Source: a virus
Taxonomy: Duplodnaviria; Heunggongvirae; Uroviricota; Caudoviricetes
DNA: 8,177 bases
IMG/VR virus record: IMGVR_UViG_2690316153_000010
Strand: one strand, 5' to 3'
Position numbers and translations under genes: made by a program. The notes beneath the pieces were generated by a model. That model did no database searches and was not told where the DNA came from. It worked only from the letters and a program-made list of their open reading frames with translations. Positions within the stretch are counted from its first letter, which is position 1; every line of letters begins with the position of its first letter. Positions 1 to 7,858 of this stretch are shown piece after piece.

Positions 1-25
1 CATCAATGACCATCAGATTATTCAT
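1..25 (-). CDS. 5-prime end only (8 codons, MNNLMVID) of a second KilA-N-type gene that runs out of the window; partial
   Basis: Bases 1-44 are identical to 1586-1629, which holds the start codon and GAGGAG RBS of the KilA-N gene at 1179-1610. Too short to assess independently. Confidence 0.3.
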
Positions 26-44
26 ACTTCGTTTCTCCTCTTGA

Positions 45-434
45 TCAGGCGGCTGCACCCGCCGTTTTCTCGTACTTACTGATAGTGATCTCGACCTTCC
101 CTTTCGGGATAACCGGTCCCCACTCCACCAGCATTCTTTTCACCTGACTGTCGTCTTCCCACACACCCGCATGGGTCAGGGCGTCAAACAGCGCCTTGTT
201 ATAGTTGTCCAGATCGCGGATCCGGTTATCCGGAGGAAACAACACGATCTCCACTGAAGCAGGTGCCGACGTTGGTTTCGGCAGACGACGTAACTGCTCA
301 ATGATGGCGGCACACGCCGCGCTCTGAAATTTTCGCCCCGCCTCGCTTATCAGGCTCTTACCAGCAAATGCCCCTTTGTTGGGGTGTCGCCAGTACGTGT
401 TCACGCTGGGCGGAAAAGGCAGTATTAGCTTCAT
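45..434 (-). CDS. rusA: RusA-family Holliday junction resolvase (copy 1)
   Basis: 129-aa ORF. Motifs LPFPPSVNTYWRH and DLDNYNKALFDALTHAGVWEDDSQV match the RusA endonuclease family as I recall it. ATGA start/stop overlap with the upstream methyltransferase gene. Confidence 0.88.
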   Translation of the reverse strand: MKLILPFPPSVNTYWRHPNKGAFAGKSLISEAGRKFQSAACAAIIEQLRRLPKPTSAPASVEIVLFPPDNRIRDLDNYNKALFDALTHAGVWEDDSQVKRMLVEWGPVIPKGKVEITISKYEKTAGAAA

Positions 435-1084
435 GCCACCATCTCCCTGACCAGTTTTTCCGCCTGCTGGCGAACCTGCGCCAGAAATGCCTCACCACAT
501 GCCTCAAGTTCATCGCGCCCGATGTAGCTGATTGCCGGTCCCTTCCAGGTCTTGTCGAAAACAGCAATAGCACCAGCGAAGAAAGCACCTGTTGGCACCT
601 GCTTTTCGTCTTTCGGGATAAACCAGGCAGGCAGTTCAAAACCAATACGCCCGCGAATAAAAGCAATATGATCTGCACCTTCCGGCCACCACACTTCGCC
701 GGTGGCAGCTTTGATCAGGAAAACATAGCGCCCGCCTTTATCACGCATGGCACTGGCATGCTTCATGATGTAACGCATGCCGGTGATGTATTGCCCCTCA
801 TGCTGACTGGCGCGGCTGTACGGGGGATTGCCAAAGGCAGCACCTTTAAGCTCCGCAAGACGTTCTGACCAGTCATGCGCCAGCGCGTTGTCTTCCGCCG
901 TGTAATACGCGGCACATTTGGCGTTATCACCGTCAGTGAACAGATCCAGAACAAACGGACCAAACAAGGTGTTAATTCCCCAGAAAATGTTGTCCGGCGT
1001 GCGCCACTGATCGCCCACTTCCTTCAGTTCATGGGCTGGTTTGTTCCGCAGTTCTACCAGCGCCTGGCAATATTTATTACTCAT
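431..1084 (-). CDS. Phage Dam-like N6-adenine DNA methyltransferase (copy 1)
   Basis: 217-aa ORF starting MSNKYCQ. Contains the NPPY catalytic motif (FGNPPYSR) typical of N6-adenine methyltransferases. TAATG overlap with the upstream remnant ORF. Confidence 0.8.
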   Translation of the reverse strand: MSNKYCQALVELRNKPAHELKEVGDQWRTPDNIFWGINTLFGPFVLDLFTDGDNAKCAAYYTAEDNALAHDWSERLAELKGAAFGNPPYSRASQHEGQYITGMRYIMKHASAMRDKGGRYVFLIKAATGEVWWPEGADHIAFIRGRIGFELPAWFIPKDEKQVPTGAFFAGAIAVFDKTWKGPAISYIGRDELEACGEAFLAQVRQQAEKLVREMVA

Positions 1085-1176
1085 TAAGCCCCCACGTAAA
1101 AAGCATCCGCAATGTCTCCGGAAGTACAGCCCGGATGGGCTTCAATGAATTTCTGAACGTCATTTAACAGACTCAT
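1084..1176 (-). pseudogene. 30-codon in-frame deletion remnant of the PerC-like gene found intact at 2992-3480
   Basis: Translates MSLLNDVQKFIEAHPGCTSGDIADAFYVGA. The first 26 and last 4 residues equal the termini of the 162-aa protein at 2992-3480. Copy-2 bases 3008-3403 (396 bp, 132 codons) are absent here. Confidence 0.5.
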
Positions 1177-1178
1177 GA

Positions 1179-1610
1179 TCACCCCCTGAATCCTGCCGGG
1201 ATCTGGCTGTAGTCCACGTTGTCGTAACTGGCTTTGAAGTACGGGTCTTCACGTTTTTCTGTGTGCGTGCTGACGGACGGCGATAAGCGCAGGGAAAGCT
1301 CATCCCATTTTTCCCGCAACTTCGACGGGCTGATCCACATTGCATAGGCATACACCAGTTCCTTGCAGACATACGTTCCCCGTTCATTTCCCCCATGAAT
1401 CACACTCACCGGGTCAACACCCAAATTCTGGGTGTTGGTCAATTCATGAACAAGCTCAACAGTTTGTTGGCTGGAAAGAAACTTTCCTGGCTCCTTGGTT
1501 CTGGCATTTGCACCAGATGCTACTGCTGCGCGATGCAGATCGTTCAGGCTGTAACGCCCATAAGCATCACGACGAACTTCAATACCATCAATGACCATCA
1601 GATTATTCAT
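1179..1610 (-). CDS. KilA-N domain protein, chimeric: KilA-N N-terminal domain fused to the C-terminal ~50 aa of the replication-initiator-like protein
   Basis: ORF 1179-1643 trimmed to the ATG at 1610, which has a GAGGAG RBS 9 nt upstream. GTYVCKELVYAYAMWISP resembles the KilA-N signature. Bases 1179 to about 1330 are near-identical to 3483 to about 3640. Confidence 0.7.
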   Translation of the reverse strand: MNNLMVIDGIEVRRDAYGRYSLNDLHRAAVASGANARTKEPGKFLSSQQTVELVHELTNTQNLGVDPVSVIHGGNERGTYVCKELVYAYAMWISPSKLREKWDELSLRLSPSVSTHTEKREDPYFKASYDNVDYSQIPAGFRG

Positions 1611-1629
1611 ACTTCGTTTCTCCTCTTGA

Positions 1630-2019
1630 TCAGGCGGCTGCACCCGCCGTTTTCTCGTACTTACTGATAGTGATCTCGACCTTCCCTTTCGGGATAACCG
1701 GTCCCCACTCCACCAGCATTCTTTTCACCTGACTGTCGTCTTCCCACACACCCGCATGGGTCAGGGCGTCAAACAGCGCCTTGTTATAGTTGTCCAGATC
1801 GCGGATCCGGTTATCCGGAGGAAACAACACGATCTCCACTGAAGCAGGTGCCGACGTTGGTTTCGGCAGACGACGTAACTGCTCAACTATTGCTGCGCAC
1901 GCCGCGCTCTGGAATTTGCGCCCCGCTGCGCTTATCAGACTCTTACCAGCAAACGCCCCTTTGTTGGGGTGTCGCCAGTACGTGTTCACGCTGGGCGGGA
2001 AAGGCAAGATCAGCTTCAT
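1630..2019 (-). CDS. rusA: RusA-family Holliday junction resolvase (copy 2)
   Basis: 129-aa ORF differing from copy 1 at 2 residues (E31A, I45V). Same motifs. ATGA overlap with the upstream LexA-like gene. Confidence 0.88.
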   Translation of the reverse strand: MKLILPFPPSVNTYWRHPNKGAFAGKSLISAAGRKFQSAACAAIVEQLRRLPKPTSAPASVEIVLFPPDNRIRDLDNYNKALFDALTHAGVWEDDSQVKRMLVEWGPVIPKGKVEITISKYEKTAGAAA

Positions 2020-2342
2020 ACTTTCAGGCCCCTCTCATGTAACCAGTGGGCTGCACGCAGCCTGGCGTTTTCCTCACCGGCAAGCAGTGCGCGGATAATC
2101 CCGACCGCCTCGCTGTCGTCGTCCTTCACCGCGGTATGAAGAGTTATCCCCCGGGCCACGCCACGCTTTATCGTGATGACGCCTTTTTTCTCCAGTGCGC
2201 GAAGATGCTCCACCGCTGCATTCACCGAACGGTATCCCAGCATGGTTGCCACCTCCTGATTGGTTGGCGGAAAGCCACGTTCTTGCTGGTAAGAAATCAG
2301 CATATCCAGCACCTGCTGCTGGCATTGAGTTAACGTCGTCAT
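2016..2342 (-). CDS. LexA N-terminal DNA-binding-domain-like protein with no S24 peptidase domain
   Basis: 108-aa ORF. Residues 4-66 (LTQCQQQVLDMLISYQQERGFPPTNQEVATMLGYRSVNAAVEHLRALEKKGVITIKRGVARGITL) align with the LexA winged-helix domain ([65 protein letters not shown]). No Ala-Gly cleavage site and no Ser/Lys dyad. ATGA overlaps at both ends. Confidence 0.7.
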   Translation of the reverse strand: MTTLTQCQQQVLDMLISYQQERGFPPTNQEVATMLGYRSVNAAVEHLRALEKKGVITIKRGVARGITLHTAVKDDDSEAVGIIRALLAGEENARLRAAHWLHERGLKV

Positions 2343-2992
2343 GCCGCCATCTCCCTGACCAGTTTTTCCGCCTGCTGGCGAACCTGCGCCAGAAAGGCCT
2401 CACCACATGCCTCAAGTTCATCGCGCCCGATGTAGCTGATTGCCGGTCCCTTCCGGGTCTTGTCGAAAACAGCAATAGCACCAGCGAAGAAAGCGCCTGT
2501 CGGCACCTGCTTCTCGTCCTTCGGGATAAACCAGGCTGGCAGTTCAAAACCAATACGCCCGCGAATAAAAGCAATATGGTCTGCATCTTCCGGCCACCAA
2601 ACTTCGCTGGTGGCAGCTTTGATCAGGAAAACATAGCGCCCGCCTTTATCACGCATGGCACTGGCATGCTTCATGATGTAACGCATGCCGGTGATGTATT
2701 GCCCCTCATGCTGACTGGCGCGGCTGTACGGGGGATTACCAAAGGCAGCACCTTTAAGCTCCGCAAGACGTTCTGACCAGTCATGCGCCAGCGCGTTGTC
2801 TTCCGCCGTGTAATACGCGGCGCATTTGGCGTTATCACCATCAGTAAACAGATCCAGAACAAACGGGCCAAACAGGGTGTTAATTCCCCAGAAAATGTTG
2901 TCCGGCGTGCGCCACTGATCGCCCACTTCCTTCAGTTCATGGGCTGGTTTGTTCCGCAGCTCCACCAGCGCCTGGCAATATTTATTACTCAT
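2339..2992 (-). CDS. Phage Dam-like N6-adenine DNA methyltransferase (copy 2)
   Basis: ORF 2339-3025 trimmed to MSNKYCQ at 2992 by comparison with copy 1 and the TAATG overlap with the upstream stop. 4 amino-acid differences from copy 1. NPPY motif present. Confidence 0.8.
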   Translation of the reverse strand: MSNKYCQALVELRNKPAHELKEVGDQWRTPDNIFWGINTLFGPFVLDLFTDGDNAKCAAYYTAEDNALAHDWSERLAELKGAAFGNPPYSRASQHEGQYITGMRYIMKHASAMRDKGGRYVFLIKAATSEVWWPEDADHIAFIRGRIGFELPAWFIPKDEKQVPTGAFFAGAIAVFDKTRKGPAISYIGRDELEACGEAFLAQVRQQAEKLVREMAA

Positions 2993-3480
2993 TAAGCCCC
3001 CACGTAATTCCCTGACAGATACCACTCTTCACCCGATGCAGCGCGCTTGCTGCTTTTCCGTAAACACCGCTCACGACGCGCAAGAAAATTGTTTCGCTCT
3101 TGCTGGGAGTGGCTTTCACGGAATGCCGCCATCCACACCGTTGCAGCACGACGGTATAAGCCCCTGGACTCCAGTTCTTCCGCCTGGCGGGTCAGGCACA
3201 AAATCACCCGGGGATCGTTAGTGCCGACATAGAAATTGCGCACAGGTCTGGATTCACGAACTGGTTGCGGTTCCGGCTCCTGCGGTATCTCAGTCAGCCG
3301 CGGGAAATGTCTGCGTGTATCCCCTTCACAACGGTGAGCCACACGCCCACTCTGACGTAACTTGCTTGCTGACTGCAGAACGCGCTGTCGTGAGTAACCT
3401 GCAAAAGCATCCGCAATGTCTCCGGAAGTACACCCCGGATGGGCTTCAATGAATTTCTGAACGTCATTCAAAAGACTCAT
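2992..3480 (-). CDS. Hypothetical regulator, possibly PerC-family-like
   Basis: 162-aa ORF (track ORF 2992-3486 trimmed to MSLL, since the upstream stop is at 3483-3485). The segment AEELESRGLYRRAATVWMAAFRES...ERNNFLARRERCL resembles the PerC-family motif as I recall it. Family assignment is tentative. Confidence 0.5.
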   Translation of the reverse strand: MSLLNDVQKFIEAHPGCTSGDIADAFAGYSRQRVLQSASKLRQSGRVAHRCEGDTRRHFPRLTEIPQEPEPQPVRESRPVRNFYVGTNDPRVILCLTRQAEELESRGLYRRAATVWMAAFRESHSQQERNNFLARRERCLRKSSKRAASGEEWYLSGNYVGA

Positions 3481-3482
3481 GA

Positions 3483-4424
3483 TCACCCCCTGAATCCTGC
3501 CGGGATCTGGCTGTAGTCCACGTTGTCGTAACTGGCTTTGAAGTACGGGTCTTCGCGTTTTTCGGTGTACGTGCTGACGGACGGCGATAAGCGCAGGGAA
3601 AGCTCATCCCATTTTTCCCGCAGCTTCGACGGGCTGAGCACGTTACGGCACCAGAACGGATCGCGACTGACGCGGCTGTACATCTCGCAGATTTGTTTAT
3701 GAGTACGACCATCCTGCACACACATCAGGCGAATTTCGTTTGCCCAGGCTGTCCAGTTCGGTTCTTTGGGACGAACCACCTCGCCGTCACATTCGGCGGC
3801 ATGCTCGTACAGGGCGATGATTTTTTTCCAGAGCCACTGTGCGCAGGTCAAATCATCCTGCGTCCCCCACTGGCGCTTTTTAGGGCTGAATACAACCGCA
3901 TCAGGATGGCGAGTTAAAAAATCCTGTTCAGCCGTCTGCGTGTCCGGTTGCGAAGCGTCCGGACGAGAAGTTTTTTTATCTGACGGATCATGTTTTGATT
4001 TTACTGACGGATCCCCACCAGATTCTGACGGGTGAAAACCCGCTTTTTTGCCAGATTTCGACGCATCAAATTTTGACGGGTCAGATTTTGATGCGTCAGA
4101 TTTTGACGGGTCAGAATCTGACAGTTGAGAAAATGCCGCTGCCTGAAGCTTCGCAACGTTAAGCTGATAAACATTCGACGCATTGCGGTTACCCTGGCGA
4201 CGCGCCCTACGCGTTAACCAGCCTTCTGCTTCCAGCCGTGCGATAGCCGTTCTGACGGTACTCATCCCCGCGCCAATCTGGCGGGCAATGGTTTCAATTG
4301 ATGGCCAGCACACACCTTCGTCATTACTGAAATCAGCCAGGCGGGCCATAATTGCCACGCTGGATAATTTCATGCCTGATGCAGCGCAACCATCCCATAC
4401 ATAGCCGGTTAATTTAGTGCTCAT
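3483..4424 (-). CDS. Replication initiator-like protein: N-terminal HTH/winged-helix domain, low-complexity DPSKS repeat linker, C-terminal tail shared with the KilA-N gene
   Basis: 313-aa ORF. N-terminal segment (GYVWDGCAASGMKLSSVAIMARLADFSNDEGVCWPSIETIARQIGAGMSTVRTAIARLEAEGWL) looks like the HTH domain of phage replication initiators. Internal tandem DNA repeats resemble lambda O-type iterons. Position downstream of cro/cII-like genes fits. Confidence 0.65.
   Translation of the reverse strand: MSTKLTGYVWDGCAASGMKLSSVAIMARLADFSNDEGVCWPSIETIARQIGAGMSTVRTAIARLEAEGWLTRRARRQGNRNASNVYQLNVAKLQAAAFSQLSDSDPSKSDASKSDPSKFDASKSGKKAGFHPSESGGDPSVKSKHDPSDKKTSRPDASQPDTQTAEQDFLTRHPDAVVFSPKKRQWGTQDDLTCAQWLWKKIIALYEHAAECDGEVVRPKEPNWTAWANEIRLMCVQDGRTHKQICEMYSRVSRDPFWCRNVLSPSKLREKWDELSLRLSPSVSTYTEKREDPYFKASYDNVDYSQIPAGFRG
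3975..4127. repeat. Iteron-like 15-bp tandem repeats (consensus AGATTTTGACGGGTC, core TGACGG); candidate origin of replication inside the initiator gene
   Basis: Five contiguous 15-bp units at 4053-4127, plus three degenerate copies at 3975-3989, 3996-4013 and 4021-4035 interspersed with A/T runs. In the coding frame they give the pentapeptide repeat DPSKS/DASKS. Confidence 0.6.
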
Positions 4425-4433
4425 GACCGACCT

Positions 4434-4772
4434 CTATTTCCCTGAATTTACGACGAAACTGTTCGAGCGGGCTGAAGCACTCATGCTCATAGCCTTCGCG
4501 GAGGTAGATAACACGTTGTGTTTCCGGCTCCCAACGAATGACTCTGACGGGCACTCCGTAGTGATCTTTGAACCAGCGGTTAACTTGTCGCAAAGGACTG
4601 TCTCCTTCTGCCGGTTGAAATCACCCACAGCCCACTCTGCAAAGCTGTGGGTTACAATTTCCCTGTCACCTGGTACATTCACTGCATAGCAATACTCCAC
4701 CTTCGCTTTTCCACCCGGTACAGGAAGCGCAATCAGTTGCGAGCGACGGTAGTGTGTTGTTAAACTGTTCAT
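4434..4772 (-). CDS. Hypothetical protein; C-terminal half may be out of frame (possible frameshift or pseudogene)
   Basis: 112-aa ORF with GGAGA RBS 9 nt upstream. The last ~50 residues are S/T/A-rich and low in complexity, while the -1 frame (4414-4620) is open for 68 codons, protein-like, and ends overlapping the next gene start. Confidence 0.4.
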
Positions 4773-5365
4773 GCGTTAGTTTCTCCACAGTCACGACACG
4801 CCACGGCGCCCGGAGCTGCACACTCGCGGGCGTCATTACTTTCTGAAATGCAAAAAATTTTGTAGACCAGTGCTGCATGCTCCTGCAGCTTCGAAATTGA
4901 GAGGTACAGCTCGTCGTTAATTGCTGTCTTCTCATGCGGTTCCACTACACCGTCTTCAATTGCTGAACGAATCTGTTTTGAATAACTGCCGATCTGTTCA
5001 ATGACTTCCAGCAGGCGCTGGTTAATATCGGCGTTGTCCACATCCTCGACGTCAGGAAGAGACACAAAGACGCCATTTGCAGACTGCGCCACAGCGTCAG
5101 CAATGAAGTGAGTTCCACCAGCACGTTGCAAAATCATTGCCCATCCCAGCGGGAAAATCTGATCGCCATCGGCACGAAGGCGGTTAAATAATGCGTTCTC
5201 TGTTACATCCAGCCAGTCAGCTGCTTCAGCGTAACCACCCGGCAACTTTGCGATAGTTTTTCTGACAGCTTTCACGTACCACTCAGGCTGTTTTTCTACT
5301 TTCCAGTGATGCTTACCCACGGTTAGCCTCATCGTTCTGTGGTTTCTGTTAATCGATTTATCCAT
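4769..5365 (-). CDS. CII/YdaT-like regulator (positional cII equivalent)
   Basis: ORF 4769-5434; start uncertain (candidate ATGs at 5365, 5377, 5332), chosen to limit overlap with cro. HTH-like segment [22 protein letters not shown]. Lies directly downstream of the Cro/YdaS-like gene. Family assignment by recollection only. Confidence 0.5.
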
Positions 5366-5558
5366 TAGATTTTTCATAAAGCTCAGGTTTAAATGGCAAC
5401 CGTCCGCAAGTTCTATATGCAGCTTCTGCTGCACGTCCTTTTGGAATTAACTGGCCCGGACGGTTTCGCCACTGATAAACGGCTTCAGTTGTTATGCCGA
5501 AAAAAGCAGCAACTTTCTCAATACTGCCGAAGTAGCTTTCGATATCGTCAGTTGTCAT
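5358..5558 (-). CDS. Cro/YdaS-like HTH regulator
   Basis: 66-aa ORF transcribed divergently from the repressor. GGAGGG RBS 4 nt upstream of the ATG. HTH-like segment SIEKVAAFFGITTEAVYQWRNR. Confidence 0.7.
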   Translation of the reverse strand: MTTDDIESYFGSIEKVAAFFGITTEAVYQWRNRPGQLIPKGRAAEAAYRTCGRLPFKPELYEKSNG

Positions 5559-5655
5559 ACGCCCTCCAAACTAAGTTTTGTTAGATGCTAATTACAAATC
5601 TATCTTTGGTCAATAAAAACTAAGATTACTTAGCGATTAAAGAAATGGTGCTCCT
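5559..5655. promoter_or_regulatory. Divergent immunity promoter/operator region (pR for cro, pRM for the repressor) with CTAA-N6-TTAG operator palindromes
   Basis: Operator-like sites CTAAGTTTTGTTAG (5571-5584) and CTAAGATTACTTAG (5620-5633), plus overlapping TTAGatgCTAA (5581-5591). Minus-strand -35 TTGACC (5608-5613) and, after a 17-bp spacer, -10 TAGCAT (5585-5590) upstream of cro. Confidence 0.5.
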
Positions 5656-6282
5656 ATGGAAACGGTTGGTCAGCGTATAAAAGCTCTGAGAAGAGTTACC
5701 AGAACGTCCCAGAAAGAATTGGGTAAATTTTGTGGAGTAAGCGACGTTGCTGTGGGGTACTGGGAGAAAGACATCAATACCCCTGGCGGGGAGGCACTTT
5801 CGAAATTAGCGAAGTTCTTCAATACGTCAATAGATTACATTCTTTACGGTGCTGAGTTTGAAGGCAAACTCGTCACAAACATGCGCAGAGTTCCTGTAAT
5901 ATCGTGGGTTCAGGCTGGGCAGTTTACTGAGTGCAGGGCAGCAGAAGTGTTTAGTGAAGTGGACAAGTGGGTAGATACATCATTAAAGGTTGGTGATAAC
6001 TCATTTGCATTAGAGGTTAAAGGTGACTCCATGACTAACCCTAATGGCCTCCCAACAATACCAGAAGGCGCAACAGTGATTGTAGATCCAGATGCAGAAC
6101 CTCGTCATGGAAAAATAGTCATCGCTCGACTTGATGGAACAAACGAAGCTACAGTAAAAAAATTAGTCATCGATGGCCCTCAAAAGTTTTTAGTGCCATT
6201 AAATCCTCGGTATCCCAACATCCCTATCAATGGTAATTGCCTTATCATTGGTGTAGTCAAAGGAGTTCAATACGAACTCTAA
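5656..6282 (+). CDS. cI-like prophage repressor: N-terminal XRE-type HTH plus C-terminal S24 (LexA-like) autopeptidase domain
   Basis: 208-aa ORF. HTH at the N-terminus, Ala-Gly cleavage site in WVQAGQF, catalytic Ser in KGDSM and Lys in TVKKL. Divergent from cro. Confidence 0.9.
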   Translation: METVGQRIKALRRVTRTSQKELGKFCGVSDVAVGYWEKDINTPGGEALSKLAKFFNTSIDYILYGAEFEGKLVTNMRRVPVISWVQAGQFTECRAAEVFSEVDKWVDTSLKVGDNSFALEVKGDSMTNPNGLPTIPEGATVIVDPDAEPRHGKIVIARLDGTNEATVKKLVIDGPQKFLVPLNPRYPNIPINGNCLIIGVVKGVQYEL

Positions 6283-6304: not shown

Positions 6305-6337
6305 CACCGAACCAAGAAAAGTTTGGTGTTTTCTCTT
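6305..6337 (+). terminator. Candidate intrinsic terminator downstream of the repressor gene
   Basis: Stem CACCGAAC (6305-6312) pairs with GTTTGGTG (6321-6328) including one G-U, with an 8-nt loop, followed by TTTTCTCTT. Confidence 0.35.
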
Positions 6338-6364
6338 GCCATGATAACTAAGTTAAGTTAGATT
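6336..6364 (+). promoter_or_regulatory. Candidate early-left promoter (pL-like) with overlapping operator (OL-like)
   Basis: -35 TTGCCA (6336-6341), 17-bp spacer, -10 TAGATT (6359-6364). The operator CTAAGTTAAGTTAG (6348-6361) has the same CTAA-N6-TTAG architecture as the cro/cI intergenic sites. Confidence 0.35.
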
Positions 6365-6447
6365 TTATATCAAAGATAACGAACAGGCAGGACGCCCACG
6401 AAGTAGCCGCCTGGGGCATATGAAGTCCAGGATGATTCGTTAGCAAC

Positions 6448-6471
6448 AAAAAAGCGCCCTACAGGACGCTT
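6448..6471 (-). terminator. Intrinsic terminator for the minus-strand gene 6510-7001
   Basis: On the minus strand: AAGCGUCC, loop UGUA, GGGCGCUU (8-bp GC-rich stem with one G-U), then a U-tract (plus-strand A-run 6448-6453). Lies about 40 nt past the stop codon. Confidence 0.55.
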
Positions 6472-6472
6472 A

Positions 6473-6485
6473 GCTCTTTAACAAT
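6473..6485 (+). promoter_or_regulatory. boxA-like antitermination motif (GCTCTTTAACAAT)
   Basis: 13 of 13 match to the core of the E. coli rrn boxA as I recall it (TGCTCTTTAACAATTTA). Plus-strand, downstream of the candidate pL and just after a hairpin. Confidence 0.4.
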
Positions 6486-6501
6486 CTGGATATCCACAAC
6501 A
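6483..6501. repeat. Left arm of a 19-bp inverted repeat flanking the gene 6510-7001
   Basis: AATCTGGATATCCACAACA; its reverse complement TGTTGTGGATATCCAGATT matches 7044-7062 at 18 of 19 positions. Core TGGATATCCA is itself palindromic. Confidence 0.6.
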
Positions 6502-6509
6502 GTAGTAAT

Positions 6510-7001
6510 CTACAGATTGCCGTTAAGTTTTCTGGACAACTCCTCAATGGATGGAGGCGATACGTAATCCGGATTTTTATTCATCAGAAACTTATTTTCA
6601 CAGTGGAGGCACCTGCTTTTATGAAAAAGCTCATCTTCGCTAACCGGGAATGGTTGAAGTATCGATACTATCTTTTGTCCAAAACATTTTGGGCAAAGAT
6701 GCATGGTTATGCTGCCACCGTTCACGATTACCTCCTTCGAGTATACAAAAGTACCCGACTCAAGTTGGTTAAGGATATAGCCTTCCGTCTGAGCCTCAAA
6801 GTTTTCGAATTCTGCAATTTTAGCTTTGAGAGAAGCATTTATTTCTTGATAAGAGCCCACCAGTTCAACGAGAGACACGCATTCGCGCTGAATAGACGCA
6901 AGCTTTGAGTTCAGCTCACCAATAGCCGCATTTACTTCAGCTTGAGTTTTTGCCTCGTTCATTAGTTTTGCAATCTGGGCTGTTTCACGAATAGCCGTCA
7001 T
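6510..7001 (-). CDS. Hypothetical coiled-coil plus zinc-ribbon protein (moron in the rexAB-equivalent position); function unknown
   Basis: ORF 6510-7289 trimmed to the ATG at 7001 (163 aa); an alternative GTG at 7025 has an AAGAG RBS. N-terminal heptad-like helical region, then CPKC and CLHC about 20 residues apart. AT-rich relative to flanks. Own terminator; opposite orientation to neighbours. Confidence 0.6.
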   Translation of the reverse strand: MTAIRETAQIAKLMNEAKTQAEVNAAIGELNSKLASIQRECVSLVELVGSYQEINASLKAKIAEFENFEAQTEGYILNQLESGTFVYSKEVIVNGGSITMHLCPKCFGQKIVSILQPFPVSEDELFHKSRCLHCENKFLMNKNPDYVSPPSIEELSRKLNGNL

Positions 7002-7043
7002 TGCTGCCGTTAATTCAGCGATCACATTGAATACTCTTATTGT

Positions 7044-7062
7044 TGTTGGGGATATCCAGATT
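7044..7062. repeat. Right arm of the 19-bp inverted repeat flanking the gene 6510-7001
   Basis: TGTTGGGGATATCCAGATT, an inverted match to 6483-6501. Sits 19-40 nt upstream of the candidate start codons of the minus-strand gene. Confidence 0.6.
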
Positions 7063-7072
7063 AACCGAATCC

Positions 7073-7093
7073 TTGTTGTTGGGGAATAACCAG
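7073..7093. repeat. Direct-repeat copy of the right inverted-repeat arm
   Basis: TTGTTGTTGGGGAATAACCAG versus TTGTTGTTGGGGATATCCAG at 7040-7059. The 13-bp core TTGTTGTTGGGGA is perfect in both, 33 bp apart. Confidence 0.5.
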
Positions 7094-7312
7094 GTCCACC
7101 TCGCCTGATGTGGCTAAAAGCAGGCACATAACAGCTAAGTATTTTCAACCAGAGAGAATCCTTAGCGTTGTGGTGAATGCGGCTCAGCGCACGCGGGTTA
7201 AGGTTGAGGCTGACAGTCGACCTTCTGTGGATACCCACCCGCCTGGTGTGCAACCTTCGCCAGGCACCGGGAGGCACCCGGCACCACAACTTTATGCTGT
7301 GTGTAGTCCTGG

Positions 7313-7359
7313 CGGTACCAGTTTGTACCCTTGCTTCCGGCTGGTACCGTCCTTTTTTG
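7313..7359 (+). terminator. Terminator-like hairpin in the GC-rich untranslated leader of the early-left operon
   Basis: CGGTACCAG (7313-7321) pairs with CTGGTACCG (7341-7349) around a 19-nt loop, followed by TCCTTTTTT (T-run 7354-7359). The large loop makes this tentative. Confidence 0.3.
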
Positions 7360-7495
7360 CAAAACAGAGAAGAGCATCACCGGACGACGGGCTCATAACC
7401 CAATCCATCCGGGCGGCTGCCACCGCAGGTGTTCTTCTCTGTTTTGTGGAGAAACCAACCGACCTTGCAGGGTCGATATGATGAGGAGCAGCAAA

Positions 7496-7858
7496 ATGGC
7501 TAGCGAACGCAGTACTGATGTGCAGGCATTTATCGGGGAGCTGGACGGCGGCGTATTTGAAACCAAAATCGGCGCAGTTCTCAGTGAGGTCGCTTCCGGT
7601 GTGATGAACACGAAAACCAAAGGGAAGGTCTCACTCAATCTGGAAATCGAACCGTTTGATGAGAACCGTGTGAAAATCAAACACAAACTCTCATATGTTC
7701 GCCCAACTAACCGCGGGAAAATTTCCGAAGAAGACACCACCGAAACGCCGATGTATGTCAATCGCGGTGGTCGCCTGACTATTCTGCAGGAAGACCAGGG
7801 ACAATTACTGACTCTTGCCGGTGAACCTGACGGAAAACTCCGCGCAGCAGGTCGTTAA
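7496..7858 (+). CDS. Hypothetical early-left protein (120 aa, hydrophilic, acidic)
   Basis: ORF 7331-7858 trimmed to the ATG at 7496, which has a GAGGAG RBS (7484-7489) 6 nt upstream. No arginine-rich N-terminus, so not N-like. Confidence 0.6.
   Translation: MASERSTDVQAFIGELDGGVFETKIGAVLSEVASGVMNTKTKGKVSLNLEIEPFDENRVKIKHKLSYVRPTNRGKISEEDTTETPMYVNRGGRLTILQEDQGQLLTLAGEPDGKLRAAGR

Follow-up and report, generated by a model that had tools for sequence, protein, structure and literature searches.

In ribosomal RNA (rrn) operons, Nus factors act in antitermination and also bring the 5′ strand of a helix to a partner far downstream, after which RNase III cleaves. In phage P22, Ranade and Poteete are reported to have found in 1993 that the pL transcript is processed to give an antisense RNA, which controls the translation of sieB (esc/sas). 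The boxA element, whose gamma-proteobacterial consensus is GYTCTTTAANA (PMC5725501), shields long untranslated RNA from Rho in CRISPR arrays (Stringer et al. 2020, PMC7665894) and likewise protects untranslated RNA from Rho in the suhB leader (Baniulyte et al. 2017, PMC5725501). Rip1 is a single-protein anti-phage pore former of prophages. According to a review (PMC13434031) that summarises Patel et al. 2026, twelve copies assemble around the portal or small-terminase rings of phages and form a membrane pore, which aborts infection. Here we describe a locus in an 8,177-nt stretch of DNA from a Caudoviricetes virus (IMG/VR record IMGVR_UViG_2690316153_000010), referred to below as the window. 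Between the repressor gene cI and the early-left genes, it carries a minus-strand gene bracketed by an inverted repeat. By sequence and predicted fold this gene is a homologue of rip1; it lies in a conserved chassis whose cargo can be swapped, and one arm of the repeat is fused, on the strand of the early transcript, to a perfect boxA.

The inverted repeat and boxA

The initial annotation had reported a 19-bp inverted repeat around the gene, and we recovered it as described: AATCTGGATATCCACAACA at 6483–6501 is matched by its opposite-strand partner at 7044–7062 in 18 of 19 positions. With up to three mismatches allowed, 0.01 matches would be expected by chance, and two matches occurred in none of 200 shuffles. 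The pair can be extended to 26 nt (6483–6508 and 7037–7062) with 85% complementarity, and each arm includes the 10-bp palindrome TGGATATCCA (9 of 10 positions in the right arm). The further direct copy annotated at 7073–7093 is a partial one. Its first 13 nt, TTGTTGTTGGGGA, occur exactly at 7040–7052 and 7073–7085, after which the two sequences diverge (15 of 23 positions identical without gaps).

The left arm overlaps a boxA, GCTCTTTAACAA, which is identical to the E. coli rrn (rrnB) boxA over 12 of 12 nt; every other site in the window differs from it at three or more positions. On the plus strand the order is a hairpin (the cargo terminator read backwards, in the place of the rrn boxB), boxA and the left arm. 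Among cassette variants, 56 of 58 fit the consensus GYTCTTTAANA, a count that is partly circular given the pattern used for extraction. Across the 58 variants, positions 1–9 and 11–12 of boxA are conserved at 95–100%, and variation falls on the flanking position 0 and on position 10, which is degenerate in the consensus.

No boxA was found in the cI–yfdP interval of phages without the cassette. Similarly, boxA and the repeat are both missing from the homologous leaders of HK620 hkaP and HK446 rip1 (both downstream of N and nutL), of K-12 Rac sieB and of a late-operon copy from Arsenophonus. boxA and the repeat therefore occur together or not at all. A lambdoid nut site (boxA, boxB, N) was considered and rejected: there is no local hairpin 3′ of boxA, the sole hairpin lying 5′ of it, a yfdP-like gene comes first among the early-left genes, and the same boxA is also present in backbones with unrelated early genes.

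Conserved flanks and exchangeable cargo

Alignment with related phages had been proposed as a check on whether the flanked segment behaves as a unit, and it showed the cargo to be swapped between the arms. In 689R6 and SfIV, where the gene is replaced, homology runs up to 6489 and resumes from 7042, thus breaking inside both arms, and the cargo is an ECs1072-family gene with a 68-aa open reading frame (ORF). The cassette is absent from SfV, SfII, mEp460_4F5, 720R4 and ST64B; in the first four, homology is lost at about 6439–6441 and regained at 7096, with both arms missing. The gene is thus present, absent or replaced between homologous phages and has its own intrinsic terminator, both features of a moron, and its description as a reverse-oriented accessory gene of the immunity region stands.

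Other claims about the repeat did not hold. A search of IMG/VR for arms 0–30 nt apart gave no empty site with one repeat copy left. The arms are not insertion scars or termini of an element, because the conserved chassis extends beyond both of them and loss of the cassette removes both, the breaks lying outside (about 6441 and 7096). Nor do they look like recombinase sites, since none of the 74 unique cassettes carries inverted cargo and no recombinase was seen among the called or annotated neighbours in the contexts examined. By these comparisons, the arms are the inner edges of a conserved chassis, made of a 5′ leader on one side and a 3′ trailer with terminator on the other, rather than the ends of a mobile element.

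The same gene with its repeats was found in at least four other prophage backbones, each time antisense to its neighbours, namely a Salmonella pR operon, a Citrobacter cI–xis interval, Rac-like prophages (E. coli, Cronobacter) and Symbiopectobacterium. These loci were retrieved by diverged protein homologues alone and not by their flanks, and every one of them has the same leader and trailer. The strand of neighbours was read from annotated or gene-called contexts, a count of raw ORFs being too noisy owing to spurious ORFs in the GC-rich leader. The right arm and a Shine-Dalgarno (SD) sequence lie in the leader (roughly 100–130 nt), together with a GCCTG/CAGGC and CCAC/GTGG element and two CCCCAACAACAA repeats. 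In the trailer are the left arm, GTTAAAGAGC and a terminator whose hairpin is followed by a T run. In the loci retrieved by protein, nucleotide identity is 63–81% in the ORF, 78–90% in the leader and 96–100% in a 23-nt core of the trailer, the flanks overall ranging from 78 to 100%. The cargo terminator is kept in cassettes of all cargo types and in other prophage contexts.

A scan of IMG/VR with the leader gave at least 120 loci, with 74 unique cassettes among the matches listed. In IMG/VR, the proteins that these flanks enclose form four unrelated clusters, to which a 167-aa cargo type in an E. coli genome is added. Of 5426 complete E. coli genomes, 1437 match part of 6442–7136 and 685 match at least 80% of it. 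A pattern scan of genome contigs produced many chance matches outside Enterobacterales, and enterobacterial loci alone were used. Present at least in part in about one in four complete E. coli genomes, and holding at least four unrelated small proteins of no known function besides the Rip1 type, the chassis offers a cheap signpost for new prophage defence genes.

The other cargo includes a 170–176 aa signal-peptide protein with a weak LprI-like match, the 167-aa protein and a protein of 150–162 aa with two predicted membrane helices (L035, L184, L183 and L072/L081/L087/L137). None of these families is in PADLOC 2023, and for one of them a comparison with K-12 SieB gave no significant similarity. 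They are candidates for defence or exclusion genes.

Cassettes of about 690–710 nt (ECs1072 type, L183, L041, L086) additionally carry an early-sense ORF of 64–97 aa with a good SD, 33–47 nt after the start of the left arm. These small ORFs (L002, 2248–2454, plus; L183, from about 2075 onward, plus) are convergent with the ECs1072-type cargo and slightly overlap it, and that of L002 belongs to a recognised phage family, phrog_1744. Such an ORF may encode an antidote made from the early transcript and paired with the defence gene.

A more distant copy was observed in Arsenophonus nasoniae (L240, 2400–3000), where the late operon holds, between its lysis genes and terminase, an antisense Rip1-like gene of 52% identity. 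This copy has a canonical promoter, TTAGAA-17-TATAAT, and a single CCCCAACAACAA, and lacks arms, boxA and terminator.

The cargo gene and its leader

A PDB search with a profile of 25 homologues of the cargo protein retrieved 9oox_L, annotated as ‘ring interacting pore 1 (Rip1)’, at E 3.6e-17 over positions 6–152. The single sequence also reached 9oox Rip1 (E 2.7e-7). In the AlphaFold2 (AF2) model (predicted local distance difference test, pLDDT, 87.7), two long N-terminal helices at 2–24 and 28–80 are followed by a C-terminal domain with beta strands at 84–150. Foldseek matched this model to 9oox_L/M, which is HK446 Rip1 in complex with the T6 small terminase, at E 4e-7 to 7e-7 with probability 1.0 and target-normalised template modelling (TM) scores of 0.53–0.71. 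By tblastn, genes of DMS3/JBD30/D3112-group Pseudomonas phages and the HK446 gene were found at 27–29% identity (E 2e-11 for the DMS3/JBD30 group). Sequence homology and modelled fold agree in identifying the cargo as a Rip1-family homologue. The cargo is a new member of a known defence family, and by this kinship it would act in defence; the expectation that the slot holds cargo of the exclusion or abortive-infection type is supported by the profile, single-sequence and fold matches alike. In PHROGs the protein belongs to phrog_1244, ‘unknown function’, and Pfam, NCBIfam and PADLOC 2023 returned nothing for it.

The gene annotated at 6510–7001 is real and on the minus strand; its start was less well placed. 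Because most full-length homologues are about 171 aa long, GTG 7025 is a likelier start than ATG 7001, and an AAGAG Shine-Dalgarno precedes it.

The two CCCCAACAACAA repeats of the cargo leader are the complement of 7040–7052 and 7073–7085, and the leader alone is predicted to be unstructured. A scan of the minus strand upstream of 7025 found no sigma-70 consensus promoter, and by eye the leader was unconvincing. In Salmonella, the interval between the gene and its divergent neighbour is just about 130 nt of cassette leader, so that a promoter must be inside the leader if the gene is expressed.

Several further observations concern this leader. At 7096–7136 (CCACCTCGCCTGATGTGGCTAAAAGCAGGCAC), two interleaved stems, CCAC/GTGG and GCCTG/CAGGC, could form a pseudoknot. 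In the K-12 Rac sieB leader (L236, 2565–2600) the second stem is GCCCGG/CCGGGC, a compensatory change with respect to GCCTG/CAGGC, and the interleaved-stem element also occurs upstream of HK620 hkaP and HK446 rip1. On the minus strand at 7040–7062 and 7073–7090, AACAACAAG and AACAACAAUAAG form runs of A-R-N triplets, the type of sequence bound by the distal face of Hfq. These runs hint at control of the cargo mRNA by a small RNA (sRNA).

Conservation of the repeat among cargo types

The sequence of the arms differs with the cargo. Rip1-type cassettes have AATCTGGATATCC..., those of the ECs1072 type AATCTGGT(TAT)CCCCA.CAAC, and those with the 167-aa cargo AATCTT.GTATCCCC / AATCTTGATACCCCC; cassettes with signal-peptide cargo (L035, L184) carry AATCTGGATGACT on both arms. 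Some changes are mirrored, with G6 replaced by T in both arms of the L183 type and A8 by T in both arms of the ECs1072 type. Over 40 distinct arm pairs, 86.4% of cells pair, compared with 82.9% after shuffling (a value reached in 0 of 500 shuffles), and 8 of 19 pairs change on both sides (2 of 500 shuffles). Sliding the partners by 1–3 columns reduced pairing to 25–51%. These comparisons argue that the repeat is maintained as an inverted repeat while the arm sequence varies from one cargo type to another.

Position of the cassette relative to pL

The features of the locus are listed in Table 1. An operator copy and a promoter-like site directly follow cI, and phages of other immunity types have their own operators and their own promoter at the same spot. 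We therefore place pL directly after cI, and the cassette downstream of it and antisense to it. Homology among phages of differing immunity type resumes at 6378, and the 65-nt leader that begins there is common to SfV, SfII, SfIV, ST64B and others, independently of immunity type or cargo. Starting exactly where the immunity-specific sequence ends, this segment probably opens the pL transcript, which would be read rightwards as far as the yfdP-like gene. In these N-less phages it could belong to an RNA-based antitermination system or to an sRNA precursor system. Around boxA, with the promoter-like site and operator upstream, the ORF list gives no plausible translated ORF on the plus strand of 6365–7496 and no plausible plus-strand gene before 7496.

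The cassette thus appears to lie within the pL transcription unit, in the arrangement of sieB and not of rexAB. The initial annotation had placed the gene in the slot of rexAB, a comparison that we do not retain: rexAB is upstream of pL and co-oriented with cI, whereas a pL-like site precedes the cassette, which is antisense as are sieB and HK446 rip1. The orientation opposite to cI and to the first early-left gene was correctly described. The segment is AT-rich against its surroundings as stated, with a GC content of 0.42 (6442–7095) compared with 0.55 (7096–7495) and 0.53 (1–5300), but this does not set it apart from cI and cro, which are also at 0.43.

Table 1. Coordinates of the cassette and of neighbouring features in the window
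Feature	Position	Strand	Description
boxA	6473–6484	plus	2-nt overlap with left arm
Left arm	6483–6508, core 6483–6501	–	In cargo 3′ untranslated region; directly 3′ of boxA on the early transcript
Right arm	7037–7062, core 7044–7062	–	In cargo 5′ untranslated region, just upstream of the AAGAG Shine-Dalgarno
rip1-like gene	6510–7025	minus	171 aa from GTG 7025, 163 aa from ATG 7001; C-terminal beta-rich domain with CxxC...CxxC
Cargo terminator	6445–6471	minus	Intrinsic; hairpin 6452–6471 then T run (terminator scan)
Cargo 5′ leader	7026–7136	minus	GCCTG/CAGGC and CCAC/GTGG stem element at 7096–7136, two CCCCAACAACAA repeats, SD
Variable slot holding the cassette	6442–7095	minus	Terminator, boxA complement, left arm, rip1-like gene, right arm, repeated C/A-rich leader
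Candidate pL	6336–6364	plus	TTGCCA-17-TAGATT (promoter scan); overlaps third OR-type operator CTAAGTTAAGTTAG at 6346–6359
Early-left transcript 5′ leader, conserved	6378–6441	plus	BLAST breakpoints, sequence comparison
cro	5358–5558	minus	With cI, flanks operators CTAAG-N-TTAG
OR-type operators near cro	5564–5584, 5613–5633		Repeat family D1/D3, CTAAG-N-TTAG form
cI	5656–6282	plus	Next to operators CTAAG-N-TTAG
yfdP-like gene	7496–7858	plus	First early-left gene (gene call)

Outside the cassette, in the early-left leader, 7137–7360 (plus) resembles the STnc100/PasD RNA family (Rfam RF02076, 40.3 bits with a gathering threshold of 47, E 3.5e-6), and the 3′ end of this element is a hairpin with a U run. 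A terminator is therefore implied, which early-left transcription must pass. The element is followed, just 5′ of the yfdP-like gene, by a hairpin with 24-nt arms (7360–7383 and 7423–7446). In K-12 Rac, the annotated sRNA KilS is found at the equivalent place. Searched over the whole window at E up to 1, Rfam placed no family on the cassette and matched only STnc100 nearby and a spurious miRNA.

RNA folding and a proposed role for the repeat

Folding in both orientations, a check proposed with the initial annotation, gave the arm stem in the minimum free energy (MFE) structure of each strand. In the plus-strand fold of 6365–7140 the stem forms with boxA unpaired (z = -4.1). Three options had been offered for the repeats, and of these we favour a long-range RNA stem in the pL transcript, which is predicted here, over scars and recombinase sites. 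Our main reason to place the helix on the early RNA is that boxA is meaningful only on early-sense RNA and is strictly coupled to the repeat.

We read 6442–7095 (with the shared element reaching 7136) as one copy of a portable prophage expression cassette, inserted backwards in the untranslated pL leader of an SfV/ST64B-type lambdoid prophage. The two arms would be the strands of a long-range RNA helix at the base of the cargo, formed mainly in the early transcript. In the lysogen, the cargo would be expressed from the cassette’s own C/A-rich leader and stopped at its own terminator, and the Rip1-type pore would be set off when an infecting phage supplies its ring-shaped portal or small-terminase proteins. 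A polymerase starting at pL would transcribe the hairpin, the perfect boxA and the left arm in turn. boxA would recruit host NusB/NusE and partners, rendering the polymerase resistant to Rho over about 1.1 kb of untranslated RNA, and might hold the left arm near the polymerase, as in rrn operons, for the roughly 550 nt that must be transcribed before the right arm appears. With both arms paired in a stem of about 26 bp, the antisense-cargo RNA would be looped out. The stem could also serve as an RNase III site, and the antisense RNA so released might help to shut off Rip1 during the prophage’s own lytic growth.

That boxA guards this untranslated read-through of about 1.1 kb from Rho, while the arms pair over a long distance and so enclose the antisense cargo RNA within the early-left transcript, is the reading that we rank highest, at a probability somewhat short of even. 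We are more doubtful about a wider proposal, in which boxA plus the inverted repeat would be a portable RNA insulator built on rRNA-operon logic that lets a prophage carry defence genes backwards in early operons. There the transcript would be Rho-proof, the Nus-tethered left arm would pair with the right, the antisense RNA would be excised or folded away and the suicide gene silenced in the lytic cycle; some cassettes would add an early-sense ORF as a possible antidote. If boxA and stem do act as in the reading ranked highest, they would show how prophages place suicide-type defence genes antisense in essential early operons without polar effects, and how Nus-factor RNA handling of the rrn type is reused in a mobile cassette.

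Several observations weigh against a boxA-guarded stem in the early transcript. In SfV, SfII and 720R4 this slot holds other antisense cargo without a boxA, so that boxA is not indispensable there. The compensatory changes in the arms represent few independent events, roughly one per cargo type, and one-sided, uncompensated changes occur in L221 and L233. G-U wobble cells are more frequent in the early sense (60) than in the cargo sense (19), and RNAduplex favours the early strand in 40 of 47 pairs; both preferences give no strand decision, because the C/A-rich constant arm produces them anyway if only the other arm drifts. The minus-strand fold, that of the cargo mRNA, also has the arm stem (z = -2.8). 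Two-gene cassettes use the left arm as the leader of the small early-sense ORF: since this SD-bearing ORF of the larger cassettes comes just after the left arm, the arm can also act as a translation leader, an alternative reason for its conservation. Finally, we infer where the pL and cargo transcripts start, that transcription runs from pL through the cassette, that Nus factors bind and protect against Rho, that the stem forms, and any processing of the RNA.

The helix might instead form in the cargo mRNA, the arm in the 5′ untranslated region (UTR) pairing with that in the 3′ UTR before the terminator, so that a looped mRNA would be stabilised or its translation tuned in the lysogen; the boxA complement would then be a conserved 3′ UTR or a derived sRNA. 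Besides the minus-strand fold, this would account for the right arm lying 10–20 nt upstream of the SD in a leader otherwise unstructured, and for the conserved 23-nt block directly before the terminator hairpin, which is the usual layout of 3′ UTR-derived sRNAs. Some arm variants (L081/L096, L230/L231) also give G-U pairs solely in the cargo orientation. However, such a helix leaves unexplained the full match to the rrn boxA on the other strand together with the variation at degenerate boxA positions, as well as the joint presence or absence of boxA and repeat, and the 5′ arm may be outside the mRNA; the scan found no sigma-70 promoter upstream of it. We consider this helix less likely than one in the early transcript, but a live rival to it. 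Less probable still is a repeat with no function as a pair, where both arms would be a C/A-rich translation leader (AATCTGGATATCCCCAACAAC...) placed on opposite strands for two convergent genes, and the left arm of Rip1-type cassettes a remnant after loss of the early-sense gene or a homology patch for cargo exchange. The early-sense ORFs of the 690–710 nt cassettes, with their SD near the left arm and the phrog_1744 assignment in L002, suit this explanation, as do replacement breakpoints located inside the arms. Yet Rip1-type cassettes, which have no SD-bearing early-sense ORF, keep the left arm core and boxA at 91–100% identity while the ORF falls to 63%, and the type D arms (ATGACT) are still inverted although unlike the C/A-rich leader.

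The arms could finally act as DNA, as terminal repeats or scars of a transposon, as sites for a recombinase or invertase, or as palindromic operators (TGGATATCCA) for a dimeric DNA-looping protein. The palindrome within each arm and the precise change of cargo between the arms would fit. The operator, transposon-end and invertase readings are all weak, because the palindrome is not kept (cargo types B, C and D lack it in their arms, which are nevertheless inverted), no empty site exists among the IMG/VR matches and no cargo is inverted in the unique cassettes. In addition, conserved cassette sequence outside both arms moves along with them, both arms go when the cassette is lost, and the neighbours examined include no recombinase. 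We regard a role as DNA as very improbable, and a transposable element with terminal repeats or an invertible segment was rejected on the same grounds of travelling outer sequence, missing empty site and single orientation.

Other features of the window

The early-right region includes a segmental duplication of 96.5–97% identity (1–434 with 1586–2019, 431–1099 with 2339–3007 and 1099–1333 with 3403–3637). It yields two RusA-like genes, two adenine-methylase-like genes and a repeated 3′ end of the replication gene, and could be genuine, as a tandem duplication or mosaic, or else an effect of assembly. The Rfam call ‘mir-5880’ at 4049–4123 was rejected as a false family assignment on iteron-like repeats (TCAAAATCTGAC and variants) inside the replication-protein gene 3483–4424. 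These repeats are probably the phage origin.

Comparison with known systems

The cargo resembles Rip1 (HK446 gp37, PDB 9oox, and DMS3/JBD30-group Pseudomonas prophages) by near full-length homology, the same fold and a prophage location. It differs from the characterised protein by its identity of 27–29%, and its function is predicted from this homology. In HK446 and HK620 the Rip1-type gene is also antisense inside the pL operon, behind a homologous leader; these copies, by contrast, come after N and nutL, and both boxA and the inverted repeat are missing from them. The Arsenophonus copy, near terminase, is placed rather like Rip1 of Pseudomonas phages, which lies between terminase genes.

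With sieB of lambda, P22 and Rac, the cassette shares a small defence gene antisense in the early-left operon with its own terminator, and the 5′ leader of the cassette has a diverged copy in front of K-12 Rac sieB. The cargo protein is unrelated, however, as there is no match to the SieB Pfam family, and Rac sieB is without boxA and 3′ arm. The likeness to lambda rexAB is limited to defence genes beside the repressor gene. rexAB lies between cI and OL/pL and is co-transcribed with cI, whereas the cassette is downstream of the pL-like site and antisense.

A parallel in RNA layout is the rrnB leader (boxB hairpin, boxA, boxC), where a hairpin and the identical 12-nt boxA are followed at once by the 5′ strand of a far-reaching helix, the 16S processing stem. 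The rrn helix loops out 16S rRNA; that of the cassette would enclose about 550 nt of antisense coding RNA with a stem of about 19–26 bp with mismatches, and Nus factors and RNase III would have their roles here by analogy. As in CRISPR arrays and suhB, a boxA of the consensus GYTCTTTAANA stands at the entry to a long untranslated stretch. In contrast to these, the boxA of the cassette is mobile, on the strand opposite the cassette’s gene, and fused to a long-range repeat. No earlier description of a swappable-cargo chassis with boxA fused to a long-range repeat was found in the papers searched. Its parts are familiar themes, since it combines morons, sieB-type antisense genes and boxA antitermination.

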